DNA of 64,000 bases, from contig CAUTRK010000009.1 of the NCBI GenBank assembly GCA_963540885.1, forward strand, positions 26 to 64,025, written 5' to 3'. Positions 44,639-55,510 of the stretch are shown one piece after another (the stretch's first letter is position 1; every line of letters starts with the position of its first letter). The translations under genes and the position numbers were made by a program. Under the pieces are notes generated by a model. The model saw only the letters and a list, made by a program, of their open reading frames with translations. It did not search any database and was not told where the DNA came from. This stretch comes from an uncultured Fusobacterium sp. GTDB lineage: Bacteria; Bacillota; Clostridia; Lachnospirales; Lachnospiraceae.

Positions 44639-44932
44639 TTATATTTCAATCCTTCGATACACTGTCAGTTGCAGATCCGCAAAGCTATAGTCCGCCAGCT
44701 TATCCGGTTCCAACGGGTTTAACAGTCCTCGTTCCTTCCACTGCTTATGCGAAATGTCCGTTTGAATTGTCAGCCTCTTAACCGGCCTATCCTTCACTGC
44801 TTCATATTCTTGGCAATGGTTGAGCATGATCCCGCGATATCCGGCGAATATAACCCTGCTGCCCTCCGTTATCATCACACTGTCCGGATTTTCCATGAGT
44901 TCTACTATCTGACTGACTATGACCGGCTCCAT
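44639..44932 (-). CDS. Hypothetical protein (first gene at the right prophage end)
   Basis: 97-aa ORF. Confidence 0.45.
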   Translation of the reverse strand: MEPVIVSQIVELMENPDSVMITEGSRVIFAGYRGIMLNHCQEYEAVKDRPVKRLTIQTDISHKQWKERGLLNPLEPDKLADYSFADLQLTVYRRIEI

Positions 44933-44950: not shown

Positions 44951-44992
44951 ATAAAAAATAGTGCGCCAGAAGCATTTAACTTCTGACGCACT
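44951..44992 (-). terminator. Hairpin plus U-run on the minus strand
   Basis: agtgcgtcagaag-ttaaatg-cttctggcgcact followed by attttttat on the minus strand. A 12-bp stem with one mismatch. Confidence 0.45.
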
Positions 44993-45187: not shown

Positions 45188-46252
45188 CTACAGGCGCCGC
45201 TCCAGCAGCACATATTCATAGCGCCGCACGATCCGGCTGCGGGCATAGTTCTGTGTGACCTTCCCGTCCCGCGCGAGTGCGGCTATGCTCGAAAGACGTT
45301 TTTCTCTCAGCTGTCTCCAGATACAGCCGGCAATCGCGCTTCCAAGTCCGGGGTGCTCCGGCGCCGCGCCAAGATACAGCAGCACATAAGCCTTTGGTTT
45401 CCGCCTCAGGCAAAGTATACGCAGAAGGTTGCGTGGATCGCCCGTGTGGTACACCCTGTTTCCGTAGTCCGGCACACCGACCAAAAAGCCGACCGCTTCT
45501 CCCTGATAATATGCTATCTTTACCATCTCCATATTCAAAATATGGCGATAGCCGTCAAACAGGGTGCGGAAATCTGCGAGGGAAATCTCCTTGTAGACAG
45601 GAAAATCCCGATAAAGCGACGTAATCAGACCATAGAGCGTCTCAAGCGCGCTGTCAAAGTCCTTCCGCTCAGGGCTCACAATATCGTAGCCCCTCTCCAG
45701 AAAAAGTTCCAAGCGCCGCTCGCACTTTTCTTTGTCCGCAGGAATATCCGCCGGATAGCCGTTGGAGACATAATGCTCCTTTACCCTGTAACCATTCTCC
45801 AGAAAAAGCTCATAGTAATACTCCCTGTTGTAGGGCTCTCCGGTGTAGGGCGTCCGCTCAAAGCCGTTGATCTTCAGACGGTAGCCAAGCCAGAAGGACG
45901 CATTTACCGGTCCGATGACGCTTTCGCAGTTCATTTTTTTCGCAAATCGCCGGACGTTTTCAAAGAGGAAGCGCGCCACCGCCGTGCTGTTCACGCACTC
46001 AAAAAAGCCAAGGTAAGCAAGCGCATCCTCCGGATAACGGACGATACAGAACCTCCCGACCGCTTCCTTCCCGTCATAGATCAAAAATGCCGTGAGCCGG
46101 AAATACCCGCTCAGAGGATGAATCCCCAGAAGAAGCTTCTTCACCTCCTCCGGGCTTTCCATATTGGTGCTTCTGCTGTAAAGCTTCTTCGGCAGTCTCA
46201 GAAAATCCCGAACACGGCGTCTCTCCAGCTCAACGCTCACTGCCCGCAGCAT
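45188..46252 (-). CDS. Two-domain GNAT-fold acyltransferase-like protein
   Basis: 354 aa with ..LGFFECVNSTAVARFLFENVRRFAKKMNCESVIGPVNASFWLGYRL.. and a second ..LYLGAAPEHPGLGSAIA.. segment. Last gene of the operon. Confidence 0.4.
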   Translation of the reverse strand: MLRAVSVELERRRVRDFLRLPKKLYSRSTNMESPEEVKKLLLGIHPLSGYFRLTAFLIYDGKEAVGRFCIVRYPEDALAYLGFFECVNSTAVARFLFENVRRFAKKMNCESVIGPVNASFWLGYRLKINGFERTPYTGEPYNREYYYELFLENGYRVKEHYVSNGYPADIPADKEKCERRLELFLERGYDIVSPERKDFDSALETLYGLITSLYRDFPVYKEISLADFRTLFDGYRHILNMEMVKIAYYQGEAVGFLVGVPDYGNRVYHTGDPRNLLRILCLRRKPKAYVLLYLGAAPEHPGLGSAIAGCIWRQLREKRLSSIAALARDGKVTQNYARSRIVRRYEYVLLERRL

Positions 46253-48554
46253 CGCTTTTCATCACCTCCAGCTCTCCCGTACTCCCGTTCATTCTAATCC
46301 GATCACCATTTCTGATCTTCTCCGTGATACCCTTCACGCCCACGACAGACGGAAGCTTCAGTTCTCTTGAAATAATTGCGGTGTGTGAGAGGAGCGAACC
46401 GCGCTCCGAGACAACGCCCTTCGCCAACATCAGAAGAAATACCCAGCCGGGATCCGTCATTTTTGTGATCAGGATTTTCCCTCTGACATCGCCGGGACGA
46501 TTCACGTCTGTCACGACAAGCGCCTCTCCCTCCGCGATTCCCGCAGCGCAGGGTGTGCCGTACAGACGGTTGTTCTCGCTCCGAAAGAAGCTCTCTGCAT
46601 TCACACTCCGATGAACCTTATCAAACTCCTCCTTTTCAAAAATCAAACGGCTGTAGGCGGGAAGCTTTTCATAGAGCCTCCACCGCTCCTTTTTCACCTC
46701 GATTCTGCCTCTGTATTCCGTGCGCAGCGTCTCACTGCCTGTCAGAGGCGCTTTTCTCTCCGCAAGCGCGAAAACCTCCGCCTCCTCCAGCCAGAAAATC
46801 TCCTCTTTCCCCTCCAAAAGCCCTTCTTCCGCGAAACGCTCTCCCAGCGCAAGAAAAATCCCCCTCACCATGCCGTAAATCCGACTCCGGTTCAATCGCG
46901 CCGTCTCGCGGCTGCGAATCCCCTTCGCGCACTTCTCCGCAAGCAGCGCAGTCAGAAAACCCTCTCCCCGAGGCGCCGTCCGCCGCGCTCCGTGCAGCCT
47001 GGTATGCAACTCCCTCAGACGCTCCGGCGCCGCCGCGTATTCCTCCACCTTCTGCTGCAGCAGCTCCGGATCGCTCCGGAAGGTTCTGCTCTCAAGCTTC
47101 AGCTCCTCCATGCTGCGGTCCCCATATTCCTCCAGATAGCTCTGAAAGGCGCTTCTGTACTCCACGCTTTCCAACGCGCCCCGTCCGCCTCCGTTTTCCA
47201 GCCAGCACAGAGCGAGCGCTGTCAGCGCCTTCAGCGGCCGCAGACTCTCAATATCGGAGATTCCTGAGATGTACCGGTGCAGTTTCTCCTCCGCATCCCC
47301 GTACCTTTTCTGAAGCCGGCGCTTCAGAAGCCCCGTGAAAATAAACGCATAGAGATCGTTCAACAGCGTGACATCCCAGACAGCGAAGAGACGTTCCTGA
47401 AGCAGACGATAGAGGGAGGCGAGCTCTGCCGCGGACATACCGGGGTCAAAGCGTTCCCTGTACAGTGTCTTCACCTCCTTGAAGGCTGCACCCAGCTCCT
47501 CCATGTGCCGCTGCACAGTCAGCAGCTCATATGCCGCGTTAAAATACGTCCCAAGCCGGAGAAGAAGCGGCAGCTTTACCGCGCGGCTGTCGTACTCCCT
47601 GCTTCTCACGCCCATCATCTCCTGCCAGACAGGAATCAGCTTTCGGTTCAGCGGCAGAAATCGGATCGCCGTGTACCAGTTGCTGATCTTGTAGTACATC
47701 CTTCCATTGACGCTGCCAACCATATTCCGGAATGTTTCCTCATGCCTCTGCAGCACCCGCTCATTTTTCAGAACTCTTGCGGAGAGCCCCCGGAAGACAC
47801 CGGCGTACACCTTCTTCACAAAGCTGCAGGTGAGCGGCAGAGAGATACCGGGATAGCTCTCTACAATGTTGCTGTTGTCCATGATCAGCGGTGCGGAAAA
47901 ATCCAGCGTCGTGATTCGGCGCGCCTGAAGAATAAAAACGCTTCCGCCCGCAATGGCAAACTCGATGTCCATGCCCTCTCCCAGCAGCGCGCAGATTCTC
48001 TCCGAGAGAGCGACCAGCTCCTCCACCCTGTCCTTTTCCAGCAGCGCCTCCCGTCCTTCACGGTAATAGACGCGGTCTGTGCGATGATAGTAATAGCTGC
48101 TGGTCTCTGTCGTACCGCTTACGACGCCCTCCCCCGGCCCTCTCCCACAGACAATGACGCTCTCATTCAGAAGCCCCTGCGGATTGGAGCTGAAGATGAC
48201 GCCGGAAAGCTCCGCCGGAACCATTTTCTGGACGATGACATGCATCCTGATTTTCCGTGAACCTTTCTGATAGGCAGCGACCGCCTTTTTCTCAGCCGAA
48301 GCAAAGCACGCCGCAATTTTCTCCTTCAGCGCCGCTCTTCCCACATTCAGAAAAGTATCGAACTGCCCCGCAAAGCTCTGCTCCGCACCGTCCTCCACGT
48401 CGGCGGAGGAACGGACAGCCGAATACTCCCATGGAAACACCGTCTTCCATTGCTCCGGTGTATTTCTCTGTTCATTCGGGATAACGCGAAACTCCGGCAC
48501 CGGAAATCCGTTTTCCAACAGCAGTGTGAGATTTTCCGCTTTTTTCCCTGTCAT
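46230..48554 (-). CDS. PEP-utilising dikinase-like protein (PPDK-N ATP-grasp plus swivel phosphohistidine domain)
   Basis: N-terminal GKKAENL...SSADVEDGAEQSFAGQFDTFLNV and C-terminal ..ILITKMTDPGWVFLL..AKGVVSERGSLLSHTAIISRELKLPSVVG. An alternative upstream start lies at 48626. Confidence 0.75.
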   Translation of the reverse strand: MTGKKAENLTLLLENGFPVPEFRVIPNEQRNTPEQWKTVFPWEYSAVRSSADVEDGAEQSFAGQFDTFLNVGRAALKEKIAACFASAEKKAVAAYQKGSRKIRMHVIVQKMVPAELSGVIFSSNPQGLLNESVIVCGRGPGEGVVSGTTETSSYYYHRTDRVYYREGREALLEKDRVEELVALSERICALLGEGMDIEFAIAGGSVFILQARRITTLDFSAPLIMDNSNIVESYPGISLPLTCSFVKKVYAGVFRGLSARVLKNERVLQRHEETFRNMVGSVNGRMYYKISNWYTAIRFLPLNRKLIPVWQEMMGVRSREYDSRAVKLPLLLRLGTYFNAAYELLTVQRHMEELGAAFKEVKTLYRERFDPGMSAAELASLYRLLQERLFAVWDVTLLNDLYAFIFTGLLKRRLQKRYGDAEEKLHRYISGISDIESLRPLKALTALALCWLENGGGRGALESVEYRSAFQSYLEEYGDRSMEELKLESRTFRSDPELLQQKVEEYAAAPERLRELHTRLHGARRTAPRGEGFLTALLAEKCAKGIRSRETARLNRSRIYGMVRGIFLALGERFAEEGLLEGKEEIFWLEEAEVFALAERKAPLTGSETLRTEYRGRIEVKKERWRLYEKLPAYSRLIFEKEEFDKVHRSVNAESFFRSENNRLYGTPCAAGIAEGEALVVTDVNRPGDVRGKILITKMTDPGWVFLLMLAKGVVSERGSLLSHTAIISRELKLPSVVGVKGITEKIRNGDRIRMNGSTGELEVMKSDAAGSER

Positions 48555-48667
48555 ATCCTCTCCCCGATGCTCCGGAGCCTCCGAAGCCTCTGACGCTGCC
48601 GACCACACTCCGGCTCCGCCGCCCATCCCTCCGCGGGAGGGCAGTCTCCTTTTTGCGGCGCTCTTAT

Positions 48668-49639
48668 CTATCCGATCTTTCCGAATACGAGATAGCCCAT
48701 GATCGTCAGGAGCATCAGCGATTCCTGAAGATAGGTATAGCGCTCCACCTGGGCGACAAGCGCAAAGCGCTCCGGATTCCGGATGAACTGCACAAAGCGC
48801 AGGCTCATCCAGCCGACCAGAAGCGCGAGCAGAAGCAGGGTGAGCTTATTCAGATTCCAGACAAGAATCATATTCGTGACAATATCTGCCAGCGTCAGGA
48901 TCAGTACAAAGCGCGTCGGGCGCACATAGCCGAAAAGCTTTGAGTAGGTGACGTAGTCATTTTCATCCTTCGGCGCTCTGATCTTTCTGGATATCTCCCA
49001 GATCAAGGCCGGAAAATACAAGGTCCAGAGCGTCATGACCGTAATCAGCGAAACTGCCGGCGTCAGACGATACTTGATCACAGTAAAGGAGATGATGTAG
49101 AGGTTTACAAACATCTGCACCGGATTGTGTGTGACAAGCGCCAACGGAAGGCTCGGCTGAATTCTTGCCCGCTGAAAGAACCACTTGCTCATAAGGTAGC
49201 CGTAGAGATACAGGATGCAGAAGAAGGGTAAATTATTCATGAAGCAGAAATTCAGTCCTGCGGCGACCGTCTGTGCGATGGCGCAGATAATCACGACATC
49301 GCTCCTTCTGGTCCTGCCGCTCGGCAGCGGGCGTTCCGGAAACAGCCGCATATCCGTCTCATAGTCCTTCAGATCATCCGCGATGCGGAGCCAGAGAAGA
49401 AAGGCAAACACTGTATAAGCGCCCGTGATTTCCTGTACACCGATCCGGAACTCCGTCACCCCGTAATTCAGCAGAACAATGAAATGAATCTCCAGAAATA
49501 TGATAAGTCCGAGCAGAAGACGCGCGAATACAGGATAGCGCTCCCGAAAATAGATATACAGTCGTCCTCCCACAGCTCCCCCGTTCCTTCTCCGCTCTTT
49601 TTCGCGACACACTCTGTTCCTTCTCAGTCCCGGCGGCAA
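48668..49639 (-). CDS. UbiA-family prenyltransferase-like membrane protein
   Basis: Polytopic membrane protein with an Asp-rich motif (LRIADDLKDYETD). The start is uncertain. Confidence 0.5.
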   Translation of the reverse strand: MPPGLRRNRVCREKERRRNGGAVGGRLYIYFRERYPVFARLLLGLIIFLEIHFIVLLNYGVTEFRIGVQEITGAYTVFAFLLWLRIADDLKDYETDMRLFPERPLPSGRTRRSDVVIICAIAQTVAAGLNFCFMNNLPFFCILYLYGYLMSKWFFQRARIQPSLPLALVTHNPVQMFVNLYIISFTVIKYRLTPAVSLITVMTLWTLYFPALIWEISRKIRAPKDENDYVTYSKLFGYVRPTRFVLILTLADIVTNMILVWNLNKLTLLLLALLVGWMSLRFVQFIRNPERFALVAQVERYTYLQESLMLLTIMGYLVFGKIG

Positions 49640-50526
49640 GACTGACGCACCGCATTCTGCGCCTCTGCCGCAGCTGTACGTCCTATCGTCTCCCTGTACC
49701 GCACCCGGATCTCCGTCTCTCTCCCGCAGAATGCCAGGATATCCTTATCAAGCACCGCTGCGTTCTTTTTCAAGAGCAGCACAATGGTGGAGCCGCCCAG
49801 CTGAAAAAAGCCCTTTTCCTCCCCCTTCCAAAAGCGACGGATGCCGTGATCCACTATGCTCCCCACCAGCAGCGCACCGACCTCGACCATGATGATTTCC
49901 CCAAAGTGCCTGCTCTTCAGGATGCTGACCAGGCGGGCATTCTCCTGATAGATCCGATATTCGTTGGAAAAATCGGACACAGTGTGCAATCTTCCCCTCA
50001 GTCTTTTCTTTCTCAGCAGCACCCCGTCGTCCGGAAAGCAGTAGCGATGATAGTCGTCCATCGACAGGCGGAAAACAAGGCAGAGCCCTCCCTCAAAGCC
50101 GCTCAGTGCAACGCCTCCGGTCAGCTGCCGCAGCGTATATTCATGTCCCTTGATGTGCAGCCTTCCGTCTCTCCGGATCGGGAACAGGCGAAGCTTTGCA
50201 TCTGCAGGAGAGATCAGCGCATCCGCCTCTCCGCGAAGGGGACGCGCCTCCTCCCTGATTTTTCGTATAAAAAAATCATTGAAGGAGCGATAGCGCGCCG
50301 TCTCATACTCCGGGAGAGCAATGTGCCAACGCCTTATAAAGGGCAGGATTTCTCTTCTGCTGAGCAGCGAGCGGTAGTACACACCGCACAGCGCGGAAAA
50401 TGCCGGATGCAGCACGAGGACAGACAGGAAACGCCCTCCGGCTGTCCCGTACAGCTTTTTCAGGAGCGCGCCGCCATACTGTCCATCCTCCTCGCAGCTC
50501 TGCTTATTTCGGTCGTAAATCCGCAT
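49624..50526 (-). CDS. psd: Phosphatidylserine decarboxylase proenzyme
   Basis: C-terminal ..FQLGGSTIVLLL (the G-S-T self-cleavage motif). Start MRIYDRN with RBS gggagag. Confidence 0.75.
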   Translation of the reverse strand: MRIYDRNKQSCEEDGQYGGALLKKLYGTAGGRFLSVLVLHPAFSALCGVYYRSLLSRREILPFIRRWHIALPEYETARYRSFNDFFIRKIREEARPLRGEADALISPADAKLRLFPIRRDGRLHIKGHEYTLRQLTGGVALSGFEGGLCLVFRLSMDDYHRYCFPDDGVLLRKKRLRGRLHTVSDFSNEYRIYQENARLVSILKSRHFGEIIMVEVGALLVGSIVDHGIRRFWKGEEKGFFQLGGSTIVLLLKKNAAVLDKDILAFCGRETEIRVRYRETIGRTAAAEAQNAVRQSCRRD

Positions 50527-50562
50527 TCTTCTCTCCCTTCTCCCCATCCTCCGATCGCGCTC

Positions 50563-51219
50563 TCATCCGCACAGCGCGGGGATCCCAATCCAGTAAAACA
50601 GAAGAAGCCCAACAAACAAAAGCCCGAACAGCAAATACGCTGCGCCCGACGGCTTCCTGACGGGAATATCCAGAATCTCAAGGACGCCGATAGCAGGAAG
50701 CGCCCAGCCGTAGAAAACTGCGAACTGCGCAGCTGTCAGCCTCCACAGAAGGGCGTAGAGGAGAGGCAGCAGCAGCGCTGTATAGGTGACCGGAAGCCCG
50801 CGATAAAAGTGGAGCGGTTCTCCGTCCATCTCCCCGACAAGAATATGAAAGTACGCGAGCCGCGCAATGCCGCAGACTGCAAAGAAAATCAGCAGGAGCA
50901 AACGATACCATGTCATCGCGCCGAGGGACAGCGCGATCACAGCAGGAAAGGCGACAAAGCTGACCGCATCCGCCAACGAGTCCAGTTCTGTCCCAAAGTG
51001 TTTTTCTTCTTCACTTCGCCTGCAGCGTCTCGCCACAGGTCCGTCCGCAAGATCGAAGACCCCTGCAAAAGCGAGGCAGCTCATTGCTGCGCGGAGGCGG
51101 AACGCCGGGAGCTCCGCCCCCGGAAGCCCTCCTGCCGCGAAGCCCATGCCAAGAATCGACGCAGCGACACCCGCGTAGGTCAGAACGACAGATCGGTTCC
51201 ATTTTCCAACTATTTTCAT
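50563..51219 (-). CDS. pssA: CDP-alcohol phosphatidyltransferase (phosphatidylserine synthase-like)
   Basis: DLADGPVARRCRRSEEEKHFGTELDSLADAVSF matches DGx2ARx8Gx3Dx3D. Confidence 0.8.
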   Translation of the reverse strand: MKIVGKWNRSVVLTYAGVAASILGMGFAAGGLPGAELPAFRLRAAMSCLAFAGVFDLADGPVARRCRRSEEEKHFGTELDSLADAVSFVAFPAVIALSLGAMTWYRLLLLIFFAVCGIARLAYFHILVGEMDGEPLHFYRGLPVTYTALLLPLLYALLWRLTAAQFAVFYGWALPAIGVLEILDIPVRKPSGAAYLLFGLLFVGLLLFYWIGIPALCG

Positions 51220-53765
51220 CTTTTCTCCGCGCGCGTCACGATTCCGCTCCCGCCATCGACTGTGACACGCTCCCCGTCCCTGATTTTTTTCATGGCGTCA
51301 TGGCAGCTGACAACTGCGGGGATGCCGTACTCCCGCGCTACGATCGCCGCGTGACAGAGTATCCCGCCGTACTCCGTGACAATGCCGGAGAGCACCGCAA
51401 ACTTCGGCGTCCAGCCGGTATCTGTGAACCTCGTCACCAGAATATCTCCCGCCTTCAATCTGTCAATTTCGGAAAAATCCCCGATGACGCGTGCCGTCCC
51501 CGTGACCACGCCGCTGTTCGCACCGAGCCCCCGAATACCCTTCGCCTCAGTCTCTCCTTTTTTCTCCTGTGCCCCTTCAAACGCCGGCCCTATCTCATTT
51601 TCACTCATGTAATTGCGGTAGGAATTGTAATATCTCCGGTTTTTTTCGATGATCCTCCGCAGCGCTTCCGCATCAAGCCGTCCATCCTGATATGCCCAGA
51701 GCTGCCTGATCTTCAAAAACCATATTTCATCGGCCTCCCGCAGAACCCCCTGTGCCACCAGAAGCTTCGCGTATTCGAGCGTATACATACGGATAATGCA
51801 GTAAAATCTGGTGGAGATATCGCGGAACTCCTCGCGCCACCAGAGCATCTCCCGCATTTCAAGCAGCTTTTTCTTCAGCGCCTCAAAACGGCTCGCCGTC
51901 ATCCTTCCTCTGATACTCTCAAGGAGCGCTGCATAGCGCTTTTTGCCCTCCGCCTGATCTCTTTCGGGGCTGTATTCATCCGAAAGCACCGCCATATCCC
52001 GCACCCCCGTGACCAGGGGCGTTATATCCTCAAAATAGTTCGGATACGCCACGTCCAGCTCATGGTCGGAGTGATAGCCGAAGCGCTCTTTCAGCTCCCT
52101 GACCTCATCAAAGAAGCGCCCGTCAGTCGCTGCACCCGCCTCCGGCTCCCCGTCCTCCTCTCCCCTGAGCTCGGAGACAATCTGCCGCGGCTCCGTGTCC
52201 CTCCAGTAAGCAAACGCCTCCGGCAGCCGCCGGATTTTTCGGGAGAGCTTCCACATCGCATAAAAGGGCAGGAGATGCGAAATGTTTTCGATGCTGCTGA
52301 GCAGTGTCAGATACTCGCTTTCCGACACATATTTCAGGAGCGCTTCCTTGTAAAGCGACTGATGCACAGTATTGATGAATATCTGCCAGAAGTAAGTGCT
52401 CTCGCTCCGGAGATAATCATCTTCCGTCAGCTTCCGCCAGGTCTTCGCGATATCTCCCGCCTGTCCTGAGCGCAGCGCGGAGAGATAGCCTTCGTAGACA
52501 TGCAGCAGTTCTTCTCTGTAGCGCTCCACGTTCCGCTTCCGCTCCCTCACAATGCGCTTCTGCGCGAGCGCCATCCGGATAATATGGAGGAGGGAAAGGA
52601 AGGAGAGCTTTGTCACCTGTCCGTCTCCCTCGTACATCATCCGGATGCCGTACTCCGAATCAAACTCCCGCTCCCTGTAGCCGATGATTTTGCTCATGGC
52701 AAGCTTCACGACAGACAAATTCCAGTAGCATCTCGCATAGAACATCTCTCCTAACTTCCGGAGCTCCCTTTCCTTCAGTATTTTAGCATCCAGAAGGAAC
52801 TTTTTCAGCGCGTACTCCCAAATATATTCGTAGAGACTCCACATATACGGATAACAGACCGCAGCGGACACGCCGCCGTCCTTAAAATCTGCCGTGCTCC
52901 AGAGATCGCGAAGCCCCGCGTAGTTCAGCCGGGTAATCTGCCTCGCCTGAAGGATCGCAAGCGCCCCACCCGCAAGCGCAAACTCGATGTCGCAGGGATA
53001 GCCGAACAGCAGCTGAATTTTCAGAAATTCCTCTCCCAGCGCCTCTATCCTCTCCCTGTCAAGCGCCGACGCGCCGTCCTCCGCCCTGCCGCTGCCCTCA
53101 TACCAGTCGTAGGAATACCGCTCCGGCTTTACTCTTCCTCCTACCAGCGCATCTCCCATGCCGGGCGCAAGTTCAATCAGCATGCTTTTGTCACAGCCTG
53201 TGATCGGATTCACCGTGAAGCAGATGCCACTGTACTCCGCCGGAACCATCTCCTGTATGACCACCGCCATGGCATAGCCCGTAAAATCTATTTTCCGATA
53301 AACAAGATAGTTCAGGATCGTCTCGCCGAACATGGACTGATAGCAGCGGACCACCTGCGCGGCGATCGCTTCCATGTCGCGTATATGCAGGAACGTGTCG
53401 TACTGTCCCGCAAAGGAGTACGCCTCCATATCCTCCTTCATCCCGCTGCTTCTGACGGCGTAGGCTTTCTCTCTGTCCAGCCGGCGTGAGAGCGTTTTCC
53501 ACGTCTCATCTGAAAGCGTCCGCCCCTCAAACAGCGCTCGCAGCTCCTTTCCGCGCTCCCGCACGTTCCGCCCGGAGAGACCGGAGAGCAGCGCATCAAT
53601 CCTGTCTTCGATTCCATTCTCCCGGACAAAGCGGAAATATTCTTCCCGGTCCAGAATCACGCCGCCGGGAACCGGAAGGCCCTCTCCCTTCATCCGGCAG
53701 AGAAAAGCGCCCTTATTGCCGAGAATTTCCGCCTCGCGGCAGCTTCCGTCAAGCTCTCTTATCAT
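51216..53765 (-). CDS. PEP-utilising dikinase-like protein, second paralog
   Basis: N-terminal GNKGAFL...VRSSGMKEDMEAYSFAGQYDTFLHI and C-terminal ..ILVTRFTDTGWTPKF..LSGIVTEYGGILCHAAIVAREYGIPAVV. Start MIRELDG at 53765 (RBS gggag). Confidence 0.75.
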   Translation of the reverse strand: MIRELDGSCREAEILGNKGAFLCRMKGEGLPVPGGVILDREEYFRFVRENGIEDRIDALLSGLSGRNVRERGKELRALFEGRTLSDETWKTLSRRLDREKAYAVRSSGMKEDMEAYSFAGQYDTFLHIRDMEAIAAQVVRCYQSMFGETILNYLVYRKIDFTGYAMAVVIQEMVPAEYSGICFTVNPITGCDKSMLIELAPGMGDALVGGRVKPERYSYDWYEGSGRAEDGASALDRERIEALGEEFLKIQLLFGYPCDIEFALAGGALAILQARQITRLNYAGLRDLWSTADFKDGGVSAAVCYPYMWSLYEYIWEYALKKFLLDAKILKERELRKLGEMFYARCYWNLSVVKLAMSKIIGYREREFDSEYGIRMMYEGDGQVTKLSFLSLLHIIRMALAQKRIVRERKRNVERYREELLHVYEGYLSALRSGQAGDIAKTWRKLTEDDYLRSESTYFWQIFINTVHQSLYKEALLKYVSESEYLTLLSSIENISHLLPFYAMWKLSRKIRRLPEAFAYWRDTEPRQIVSELRGEEDGEPEAGAATDGRFFDEVRELKERFGYHSDHELDVAYPNYFEDITPLVTGVRDMAVLSDEYSPERDQAEGKKRYAALLESIRGRMTASRFEALKKKLLEMREMLWWREEFRDISTRFYCIIRMYTLEYAKLLVAQGVLREADEIWFLKIRQLWAYQDGRLDAEALRRIIEKNRRYYNSYRNYMSENEIGPAFEGAQEKKGETEAKGIRGLGANSGVVTGTARVIGDFSEIDRLKAGDILVTRFTDTGWTPKFAVLSGIVTEYGGILCHAAIVAREYGIPAVVSCHDAMKKIRDGERVTVDGGSGIVTRAEKR

Positions 53766-53820
53766 CGCTCCGCTCCCTTCATCGCCTTCCCTGTCGGCAC
53801 AGCCTTTCTCACCCAGGCGC

Positions 53821-54408
53821 TCAGAACATGTTCCGGCGCACCCCAAGAGCATACAGGAGCATATTGAAAACAATATGCGTCAGTGCGCCGAGCATCACGT
53901 ACAGAATATACATCCCTGCCGAGAGCGGATAAAACAGACAGAGCACAAGCACGCAGCCGAAGACCGAATCCGCCTGATCCAGAAAAATAAAAAAGCCTCT
54001 CAAAAATCCGTCCGGCGCTTTTCCCGGTGCAATGCCAAGCCGCCGCTTCATAAAGCTGTTCGGCAATTCAAACAGTGCGTAGGCAAGTCCCTCCAGAATT
54101 CCGATCCGCAGATTGAACAGAGCGCTGTTCTCATGGAGGGCATAAAAAAGATTCCTCGCCGAGAGTGCCTGGCTTTTACACACCCGCCCCCACAGAACAC
54201 CAAGGGCGGCATTGAACACGATATAGCCGAAAAAGCCTTTCCAGGTCTTATGCTCGCCGAAGATCCGTCTTCCATCCCTGAGCGTCCTCCCGCCGTCCAT
54301 CGGCAGCCTCAGGCTGTCAATCAGCCCTGACTTGCAGAATGCCGAAGTGGCGACGCCTGCAAGAATCGCCGGCATCAGGCTGATATACAATGAAATAATT
54401 GCGTCCAA
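53821..54408 (-). CDS. CDP-archaeol synthase-like (CarS/DUF46) membrane protein
   Basis: GEHKTWKGFFG, ..NSFMKRRLGI.. and ..FLDQADS.. match the CarS signature motifs. Confidence 0.6.
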   Translation of the reverse strand: MDAIISLYISLMPAILAGVATSAFCKSGLIDSLRLPMDGGRTLRDGRRIFGEHKTWKGFFGYIVFNAALGVLWGRVCKSQALSARNLFYALHENSALFNLRIGILEGLAYALFELPNSFMKRRLGIAPGKAPDGFLRGFFIFLDQADSVFGCVLVLCLFYPLSAGMYILYVMLGALTHIVFNMLLYALGVRRNMF

Positions 54409-54595
54409 GCTGTCTCTCCTTTTTTCCGCAGTTCATTATAGTTCATATCCCCCTGTATGTACAGCTTTCATATACTGCCGCCGACGCCACCCTCACCGAC
54501 ATGACAGTGCTACGGCTCTCTCCCCGCTTGACCTCCCAAAAAACAGCGTGATAGAATAGGCGCGGTCCTCTATTCTGCTCCGGAAAGGAACACCT

Positions 54596-55510
54596 ATGCC
54601 CAGAGAGCTCAAGTCCTGGCAGATCGCCGAGCGCAGCATTATCAAAAAATACAGGAAACAGCTCTGGAATCCCTTCATCGCCGCGGTCAAGCGCTATGAG
54701 CTGATCCAAAAGGGAGATAAAATCGCCGTCTGCATCTCCGGCGGAAAGGACTCCATGCTCTTAGCCAAGCTGATGCAGGAGCTTCACCGCCACAGCGAAA
54801 TCCCTTTTGATGTGGAATACGTCGTCATGGATCCCGGCTACAATGCGGAAAACCGCGCCCGAATCGAGGAAAATGCCCGCCTCCTCCACATACCGATCCA
54901 GGTATTTGAAACCGATATTTTTTCTGTCGCGAATACTGTCACCCAGAATCCCTGTTATCTCTGCGCGCGCATGCGCCGCGGCTATCTCTATAAAAGAGCG
55001 CAGGAGCTCGGCTGCAACAAGATTGCGCTCGGCCATCATCTGAGCGATGTCATTGAGACCACCGTCATGGCAATGTTCTACGGCGCGCAATTACAAGGGA
55101 TGATGCCCAAGCTGCACAGCCGGAATTTTCCCGGGATGGAGCTGATCCGTCCGATGTACTGCATTCGCGAGGAAGACATCATCGCATGGAGACGCTATAA
55201 TCAGCTGGAATTTATCCAGTGCGCCTGCCGTTTTACAGAAGAAGCGGGAAGCGCCGGGAACGAAATCGGCAAAAGCAAGCGCCGGGAAATCAAAGCGCTG
55301 ATTCAGCTGCTGAAAAAAGGAAATCCCGATATCGAGAAGAGCATTTTCCGCGCCCTGCACTCCGTCTGTATCGAAACCTTCCCGGGATACAAGGAAAGCG
55401 GAGAGGATCACAGCTTTCTTGAAAGCTATGCAGGCAGAGACATCCGCAAAGGCACCTCCGCTCAACTAATACAGCAAACACAGATACCGACTGCGCCGGC
55501 GTCACCATGA
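54596..55510 (+). CDS. ttcA: PP-loop ATPase, tRNA 2-thiocytidine synthase TtcA-like
   Basis: ..KIAVCISGGKDSMLLA.. (SGGKDS PP-loop) and conserved Cys pairs. Confidence 0.75.
   Translation: MPRELKSWQIAERSIIKKYRKQLWNPFIAAVKRYELIQKGDKIAVCISGGKDSMLLAKLMQELHRHSEIPFDVEYVVMDPGYNAENRARIEENARLLHIPIQVFETDIFSVANTVTQNPCYLCARMRRGYLYKRAQELGCNKIALGHHLSDVIETTVMAMFYGAQLQGMMPKLHSRNFPGMELIRPMYCIREEDIIAWRRYNQLEFIQCACRFTEEAGSAGNEIGKSKRREIKALIQLLKKGNPDIEKSIFRALHSVCIETFPGYKESGEDHSFLESYAGRDIRKGTSAQLIQQTQIPTAPASP

Follow-up and report, generated by a model that had tools for sequence, protein, structure and literature searches.

A 64,000-nucleotide stretch of contig CAUTRK010000009.1 (assembly GCA_963540885.1, an uncultured Fusobacterium sp. 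placed by GTDB in the Lachnospiraceae), here referred to as the window, encodes at positions 45188-54408 a seven-gene operon in which enzymes of lipid head-group synthesis are combined with two large phosphotransferases and a tandem acyltransferase. With slightly better than even confidence, we interpret this operon as a pathway that is self-contained, has spread horizontally and leads to a non-canonical aminophospholipid of the membrane. The product is most likely an unusual membrane phospholipid, and probably a non-canonical ethanolamine phospholipid that bears an isoprenoid chain and is N-acylated.

The operon consists of seven co-directional open reading frames (ORFs) on the minus strand. 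According to Pfam and NCBIfam profiles and to fold searches, they are transcribed in the order CarS-like protein, kinase 1, PssA-like transferase, phosphatidylserine decarboxylase (PSD), UbiA-like protein, kinase 2 and GNAT. Two gene pairs overlap, kinase 1 with the PssA-like gene by 4 nt and kinase 2 with the GNAT gene by 23 nt, and the remaining intergenic gaps are 15-55 nt long. A first-pass annotation, made from the sequence by a model, had described a tightly packed seven-gene minus-strand operon with these gene identities in this order, which our searches bear out. From the lengths of relatives, the start of kinase 1 was moved to the ATG at 53765 and that of the UbiA-like protein to the GTG at 49573. 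All seven proteins have intact families and motifs, and none of the enzymes reaches the NCBIfam equivalog cut-off of an archaeal or bacterial namesake.

The first gene (53821..54408, minus strand), which has a TTG start preceded by AAGGAGAG, encodes a putative CarS-like CTP:lipid-phosphate cytidylyltransferase of 195 aa. Its score against Pfam PF01864 was 57.5 bits, well above the gathering cut-off of 22, and a genome-wide search with this family matched in one place only, the operon gene. Against the NCBIfam model for archaeal CarS (NF003114) the score was 78.4 bits, about half of the equivalog cut-off of 148. Residues 2-192 align with residues 12-171 of Aeropyrum CarS (ApCarS; 5GUF) over the full length (E 5e-7), and the two proteins have the motifs GKT.G, SF.KRRLGI and LDQ.D in common; the KTWKG, SFMKRR and DQAD motifs noticed in the first-pass annotation are located at residues 54, 118 and 144. 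That annotation had also raised the prospect of a reassignment to an ordinary bacterial family, but a mere CdsA was rejected, since the protein passes PF01864, shows no significant resemblance to the genome's own CdsA by BLAST (E of at least 7.8) and has no match to PF01148. The gene for the latter CdsA is located elsewhere and adjoins uppS. In a sample of 300 genomes from the phylum (E<=1e-5), the sole full-length match to the CarS-like protein was in the host genome, while seven others of the 300 yielded weak partial matches (E about 1e-6) to frames of 264-277 aa that look like CdsA. A search of 14 control genomes at the same threshold gave matches in the four archaea alone.

The two genes that would continue the head-group chemistry encode a PssA-like CDP-alcohol:serine phosphatidyltransferase (50563..51219, minus strand; 218 aa; PF01066, 47.7 bits) and a PSD proenzyme (49624..50547, minus strand; 307 aa; PF02666, 150 bits). 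The PssA-like protein has the CDP-alcohol motif D..DG..AR...G...D...D intact from residue 56, and its best-scoring models, pssA (TIGR00473; 74 bits against 107) and archaetidylserine synthase (NF038087; 73 bits against 240), were both below their cut-offs. A specificity for serine is suggested by the adjacent PSD. The latter contains the GGST self-cleavage motif at residue 251, scored 238 against an NCBIfam equivalog cut-off of 371, and was the only PSD detected in the host genome as well as in three of five cultured carriers of the operon. A chain of CTP activation, serine transfer and decarboxylation is supported by the families, by their motifs and by a fusion of PssA-type and CarS-like proteins in a distant relative. 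The logic is that of the bacterial CdsA-PssA-Psd route to phosphatidylethanolamine (PE), but the activating enzyme is of the CarS type and is encoded alongside a normal CdsA, and the operon is accessory and firmly tied to two further proteins, the UbiA-fold enzyme and the tandem GNAT.

The UbiA-fold enzyme is a divergent membrane transferase of 301 aa (48668..49573, minus strand), identified by NCBIfam and by AlphaFold2 (AF2) modelling with Foldseek. It scored 382 bits against NF010118 (PRK13592 prenyltransferase), for which the cut-off is 443, and a search of its profile against the Protein Data Bank (PDB) by sequence gave no match. Two Asp-rich Mg-diphosphate motifs are present, of which ADDLKDYETD lies at residue 65 and KDENDY at 202, and none of the positions D66, D67, D70, D74 and E204 varies among 31 orthologues. 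For the AF2 model (pLDDT 84), the best Foldseek matches were the digeranylgeranylglyceryl phosphate (DGGGP) synthase structures 7BPU (TM 0.65/0.69) and 6M31 (0.62/0.66), which outrank ApUbiA, UBIAD1, AfUbiA and the Rv3806c phosphoribosyltransferase. As judged from the model, the enzyme appears to be nearest in fold to archaeal DGGGP synthase. It is the sole UbiA-family match in the host genome and the most conserved protein of the set, with a median identity of 70%. The placement of the CarS-like and UbiA-like proteins was based on profile cut-offs and fold ranking in place of a tree; the PF01864 match of the one and the fold ranking of the other uphold the archaeal flavour ascribed to the operon in the first-pass annotation. 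Since the CarS-like enzyme stands beside a normal CdsA, and since an enzyme resembling DGGGP synthase is locked to a dedicated PSD, the lipid phosphate that is activated is presumably something other than ordinary phosphatidate, probably a molecule with an isoprenoid chain.

Both large proteins belong to the family of the rifampin phosphotransferase, Rph. Kinase 1 (51216..53765, minus strand; 849 aa) was assigned from Pfam and PDB relatives as an Rph-type enzyme with an ATP-grasp domain, a helical middle and a C-terminal His-swivel domain, and kinase 2 (46230..48626, minus strand; 798 aa) from Pfam, NCBIfam and PDB relatives as an Rph-type His-swivel phosphotransferase. The two are 25% identical to each other. 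In both, Pfam recognised the PPDK_N and PEP-utilizers domains alone (181 and 89 bits in kinase 1), the phosphoenolpyruvate (PEP)/pyruvate barrel being absent. The best PDB relative of both, across the middle and C-terminal domains, was the Listeria rifampin phosphotransferase (5HV1/5FBS, E 1e-64 for kinase 1). The swivel histidine lies in an LCHAA motif from residue 803 in kinase 1 and in LSHTA in kinase 2, in which this residue (His748) is invariant among 32 orthologues. Because the barrel is lacking, both are predicted to be ATP-dependent Rph-type phosphotransferases and not PEP synthases, and the term PEP-dependent, used for them in the first-pass annotation, is a misnomer.

The kinases thus have in common with Rph, the related PigC and RedH ligases and PEP synthase the ATP-grasp domain, the helical substrate domain and the C-terminal His-swivel with its conserved histidine, while they lack the TIM-barrel of PEP synthase. 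Their scores are below the equivalog cut-offs for Rph, PigC, RedH and PpsA, by a wide margin for the first three (Rph: 300 and 193 for kinases 1 and 2, respectively, against 999); the best NCBIfam model for kinase 2, NF004882, gave 744 against a cut-off of 850. Unlike the genes for Rph, PigC and RedH, those for the two kinases are embedded between genes for lipid enzymes of the integral-membrane type, a setting that points to a lipid or a prenol as the substrate and away from antibiotics and pyrroles. Most plausibly, the kinases phosphorylate the hydroxyl groups of such molecules.

The last gene (45188..46252, minus strand) encodes a protein of 354 aa for which no match was obtained in Pfam or, by sequence, in the PDB. 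The AF2 model (pLDDT 95.7) was most similar in Foldseek to the tandem GNATs 2WPW, 5KF1 and 7Q3A and to MshD (probability 1.0, TM 0.53-0.67), with FemX and L-PGS ranked below these, confirming the two-domain GNAT architecture that had been proposed in the first-pass annotation. We classify it as a putative tandem-GNAT N-acyltransferase of the acyl-CoA type, since it has a motif like a CoA loop, HPGLGSA, at residue 300, and the conservation of H.GLG.A suggests acyl-CoA as the donor. In most relatives the GNAT gene is followed by an eighth gene, for an AMP-binding acyl-adenylating ligase, which escaped the first-pass annotation, and in one protein (P0138) GNAT and ligase are fused. Mycobactin synthesis offers a precedent in FadD33 and MbtK, a fatty-acid ligase and a GNAT that act as an N-acylation pair. 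The operon resembles such pairs in that an AMP-binding enzyme adjoins, or is fused to, a GNAT-fold transferase in relatives, and differs from them in that its GNAT is of a distinct tandem family without a Pfam model, in the phospholipid context and in the absence of the ligase from the window. Five loci (L047:14207-15223; L049:15000-16094; L053, L057 and L080) have an extra GNAT of about 340-360 aa, with two domains (Acetyltransf_1 and Acetyltransf_3), between the tandem GNAT and the ligase.

To examine conservation, relatives were retrieved from a GTDB-based collection of species genomes by peptide patterns derived from the UbiA-like alignment. A total of 409 species genomes matched, and the counts of gene neighbourhoods given here cover the best 80 loci of these, with sources named after the record titles. 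Most of the 80 are from rumen or gut Lachnospiraceae, Butyrivibrio, Saccharofermentans and Ruminococcaceae, and five are from cultured isolates, namely Butyrivibrio sp. XPD2006 and INlla14, Lachnospiraceae bacterium AC2028 and P6A3, and Ruminococcaceae bacterium YRB3002. The full arrangement of CarS, kinase 1, PssA, PSD, UbiA, kinase 2, GNAT and ligase was present in 42 loci, whereas the others were variants or were cut by contig ends, mostly the latter. The seven-gene form without the ligase, as in the window, was seen in seven. The genes co-occur far beyond chance, as shown by the recurrence of the same order in related loci, and the co-conservation on which the first-pass annotation had made its reading depend is thereby established. 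No further conserved flanking gene beyond the operon set was found among the related loci.

More distant variants indicate which genes belong together. In one of them (L121:1664-19231), a kinase-2-like gene, a GNAT gene, a ligase gene and a UbiA-like gene are accompanied by the fusion of a PssA-type with a CarS-like protein (P0416), and additionally by a fusion of HMG-CoA reductase with an APH-type kinase, an ABC transporter of the MacB type and a fusion of MMPL with a methyltransferase; upstream of this cluster lies a B12-radical-SAM gene. A second (L124) has the order GNAT-PssA-PSD-CarS-UbiA-MMPL. In a third (L125) the seven genes are permuted, with CarS-kinase 1 and UbiA-kinase 2-GNAT moving as blocks. 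The smallest (L126:8719-13830) encodes a 429-aa protein without a family, a GNAT, a UbiA-like protein, a PSD and a short-chain dehydrogenase, and contains neither CarS nor PssA nor a kinase; its genome is Bacteroidota-like, with a Por_Secre_tail gene nearby. Judging from the variants, the persistent core is formed by the GNAT, UbiA-like and PSD genes, which CarS and PssA usually and the kinases often join. The fusions and the rearranged variants with HMG-CoA reductase and MMPL genes connect all of them to a single lipid pathway.

These patterns also bear on the idea that ordinary PE genes (PssA and PSD) merely happen to lie next to a cassette of UbiA-like, kinase, GNAT and ligase genes that serves the unrelated synthesis of a small molecule or secondary metabolite. 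Such an explanation would account for the clusters in which PssA is missing, for a locus (L075) in which the block UbiA-kinase 2-GNAT-ligase stands alone, and for the carriers, several in number, in which the PSD of the operon is the only one in the genome. We nevertheless regard it as very improbable, since GNAT, UbiA and PSD genes remain linked in the variants that are the most reduced and the most distant, and since the cluster in which CarS is fused to a PssA-type enzyme has kinase, GNAT, ligase and UbiA-like genes as well. Moreover, congeners of the host have no PSD, and hence PE synthesis was no housekeeping function beside which a cassette could have landed.

The latter result was obtained from 11 congeneric genomes, none of which contained the UbiA-like gene or any PSD. 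Since both were missing from all 11, the operon is an accessory acquisition, a status that was also overlooked in the first-pass annotation. The named relatives of the host's DnaX are from Lachnospiraceae or Clostridium sp., with an identity of about 57%. Within the family, the UbiA-like gene was present in 12 of 300 other genera sampled. The operon is accordingly a patchy, self-contained accessory unit with its own head-group chemistry and not a housekeeping PE locus. A clean insertion site was not definable by comparison with two congeners, in which a gene for a PP-loop ATPase was the only one nearby in common and the neighbourhoods differed, and a tblastn search of the PLSDB plasmids with the UbiA-like protein gave no match.

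A few carriers deserve separate mention. Four contigs of metagenome-assembled genomes labelled Saccharibacteria or Nanosyncoccaceae (L092-L095), one of which is 214 kb in size, hold the full eight-gene cluster with an identity of 66-69% in the UbiA-like protein, and further carrier contigs are labelled Fibrobacter or Muribaculaceae. These labels could reflect either transfer or binning errors. To our knowledge Saccharibacteria do not synthesise lipids, for which reason a cluster in this group would be notable if real. The sole carrier from the same family in the first sample of relatives (L017; G420:C38:24758-25684) has an in-frame TAG in the UbiA-like gene, which may indicate a pseudogene or a sequencing error.

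From the enzyme families and their arrangement we infer the substrates, the order of the steps and the product of the pathway as follows. The UbiA-fold enzyme would attach an isoprenoid chain, donated as farnesyl diphosphate (FPP) made by the host or as a salvaged prenol, to a glycerol-phosphate-type acceptor such as glycerol-3-phosphate or lyso-phosphatidate. The resulting lipid phosphate, which CdsA is presumed not to accept, would be activated with CTP by the CarS-like enzyme, after which the PssA-like enzyme would exchange CMP for serine and PSD would convert the serine head group to ethanolamine. The tandem GNAT may then N-acylate the free amine with an acyl-CoA that in most relatives would be supplied by the adjacent AMP-binding ligase. 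PSD chemistry requires a free amine because of its pyruvoyl mechanism, which implies that the step of the GNAT, with the ligase, follows decarboxylation and yields a head group with an N-acyl substituent. Using ATP and a phospho-histidine, the Rph-type kinases would phosphorylate lipid hydroxyls: kinase 1, which always adjoins CarS, may make or recycle the lipid phosphate for this enzyme, and kinase 2, which is always located beside the UbiA-like and GNAT genes, may act on a prenol or its phosphate, or else on the acceptor.

Several observations weigh against this scheme. Two kinases are more than it strictly needs, and we know of no enzyme of the Rph family that acts on lipids. The UbiA-like protein scored 29 bits, under the Pfam UbiA cut-off of 34.2, and is just 14-17% identical to DGGGP synthase. 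About one quarter of the loci have no PssA within the cluster, and some variants are without kinases or without CarS, so that other enzymes must cover these parts of the scheme there. The ligase gene is absent from the window, and an orthologue was not found in the host genome, the assembly of which is 97% complete and is the basis for all genome-wide negatives given here; the sole match was an AMP-binding gene on another contig (C2) with 27% identity. Likewise, neither PcrB, the geranylgeranylglyceryl phosphate (GGGP) synthase, nor glycerol-1-phosphate (G1P) dehydrogenase was found in this genome, in which the Fe-ADH_2 matches represent AroB, alcohol dehydrogenases and PurE, and its only trans-prenyl synthase is FPP-synthase-like. 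In view of these absences and of the single FPP-synthase-like enzyme, the isoprenoid chain would have to be short, a cis-C55 chain or scavenged.

The same absences count against a genuine archaeal pathway, in which the UbiA-like protein would be a true DGGGP synthase and archaetidylserine and archaetidylethanolamine, built on a di-isoprenoid G1P diether, would be made in a bacterium. The operon does resemble the back half of archaeal polar-lipid synthesis, in that enzymes of the DGGGP synthase (UbiA), CarS, archaetidylserine synthase and archaetidylserine decarboxylase types are all present in the order of their use in the pathway, with intact CDP-alcohol and pyruvoyl (GST) motifs, a CarS-like protein that aligns with ApCarS from end to end and a UbiA-like fold closest to DGGGP synthase. 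The host, however, is a bacterium without GGGP synthase, G1P dehydrogenase or a recognisable synthase of the geranylgeranyl diphosphate type, all operon proteins are under the archaeal equivalog cut-offs, the CarS-like score by half, and the two Rph-type kinases, the tandem GNAT and the usual ligase have no archaeal counterpart and would be left without a role. Because the genome encodes neither GGGP synthase nor G1P dehydrogenase, an archaeal diether is an unlikely product in this host, and we consider this pathway as a whole to be highly improbable. Of the archaeal ether-lipid pathway proposed in the first-pass annotation, the enzyme types stand, while the pathway itself is unlikely, and the lack of the two enzymes that it had reported for the window extends to the whole genome. 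Full-text searching of the literature found no publication on this gene set. CarS was reported to be missing from those bacteria of the FCB group for which synthesis of archaeal-type lipids has been suggested (PMC7852524).

A further alternative would be a lipid without glycerol. In this case a kinase would phosphorylate undecaprenol or a shorter polyprenol, the CarS-like enzyme would form CDP-polyprenol, PssA and PSD would produce the phospho-serine and then the phospho-ethanolamine derivative, and the GNAT would N-acylate it. The product would serve as a phosphodiester lipid with two tails or, alternatively, as a carrier from which phosphoethanolamine is passed on to polymers of the envelope. 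Both forms of this proposal appear unlikely to us. It gives a simple role to the CarS-adjacent kinase, needs no glycerol-lipid precursor, is compatible with the UppS and FPP synthase of the host, and agrees with the PssA-CarS fusion, which demands just some CDP-activated lipid alcohol. It leaves, however, no role for the UbiA-like enzyme, which is the most conserved protein and part of the persistent core, and CarS has two lipid-binding grooves that suit a two-chain substrate (review PMC9385802). The host genome also encodes IspH and a PgsA-type transferase, and it has one gene each for UppS and CdsA.

The presence of two paralogous kinases in a host with an FPP-synthase-like enzyme alone could instead be explained by a prenol-salvage version of the favoured scheme, in which the kinases act in series to turn dietary phytol, geranylgeraniol or farnesol into the monophosphate and then the diphosphate as donor for the UbiA-like enzyme, replacing the missing long-chain prenyl-diphosphate synthase. 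These prenols are plentiful in herbivore guts, and the record titles assign at least 45 of these 80 loci to ruminant collections or rumen isolates, although this habitat bias may mirror the abundance of rumen genomes in the database. A further hint at isoprenoid supply comes from the distant variant in which the HMG-CoA reductase-APH kinase fusion replaces one kinase. On the other hand, kinase 1 travels with CarS rather than with the UbiA-like gene, and we know of no enzyme of the Rph family that turns a monophosphate into a diphosphate. Neither the serial salvage nor its role as a substitute for the synthase seems probable to us.

We thus return to the aminophospholipid pathway as the favoured interpretation. 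In its most specific form, which we put forward tentatively and with some doubt, the product would be a hybrid phospholipid that combines a bacterial glycerol backbone with an isoprenoid ether in archaeal style, introduced by the enzyme resembling DGGGP synthase, and with an N-acylated ethanolamine. A bacterial CarS would provide the CDP activation, Rph-type lipid or prenol kinases would assist, and the pathway would be encoded on a mobile operon. That its makers are gut and rumen Clostridia together with rarer, more distant bacteria is part of this proposal and is equally tentative.

The operon lies between a promoter-like site and a predicted strong terminator. A sigma-70-like promoter (TGTACA, 17 nt, TATAAT; 54435..54463, minus strand), proposed from its match to the consensus alone, is located 5' of the CarS-like gene, and a putative intrinsic terminator, made up of a 14-bp stem and a T run behind it (44960..44992, minus strand), closes the operon. 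Downstream of this terminator, prophage genes begin at 44932, which is 255 bp past the stop codon of the GNAT gene, where relatives usually have the ligase gene; the phage may have displaced the latter. On the other side, the operon has a 190-bp intergenic region in common with the divergent PP-loop ATPase gene (ATP_bind_3, TtcA-like; 54596-55510, plus strand), for which a promoter-like site was noted at 54528-54557 (plus strand), divergent from the operon promoter. The PP-loop ATPase gene is about 75% identical in congeners, with different surrounding genes. Long plus-strand ORFs across the operon, in antisense orientation and with lengths of up to 502 aa, matched no Pfam family and were rejected as shadows.

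If the product is an isoprenoid-bearing aminophospholipid, the operon would provide a natural and transferable bridge over the 'lipid divide', and if the hybrid form is correct, a membrane lipid of mixed archaeal/bacterial character would exist in living cells, encoded on a mobile operon. The Rph family, known for the inactivation of antibiotics and the ligation of pigments, would gain a physiological lipid substrate and, in the two kinases, its first members that act on lipids or prenols. Since the operon is present in several cultured rumen isolates, these proposals are directly testable. For the abundant Clostridia of herbivore and human guts, the pathway would mean a new membrane or signalling lipid.

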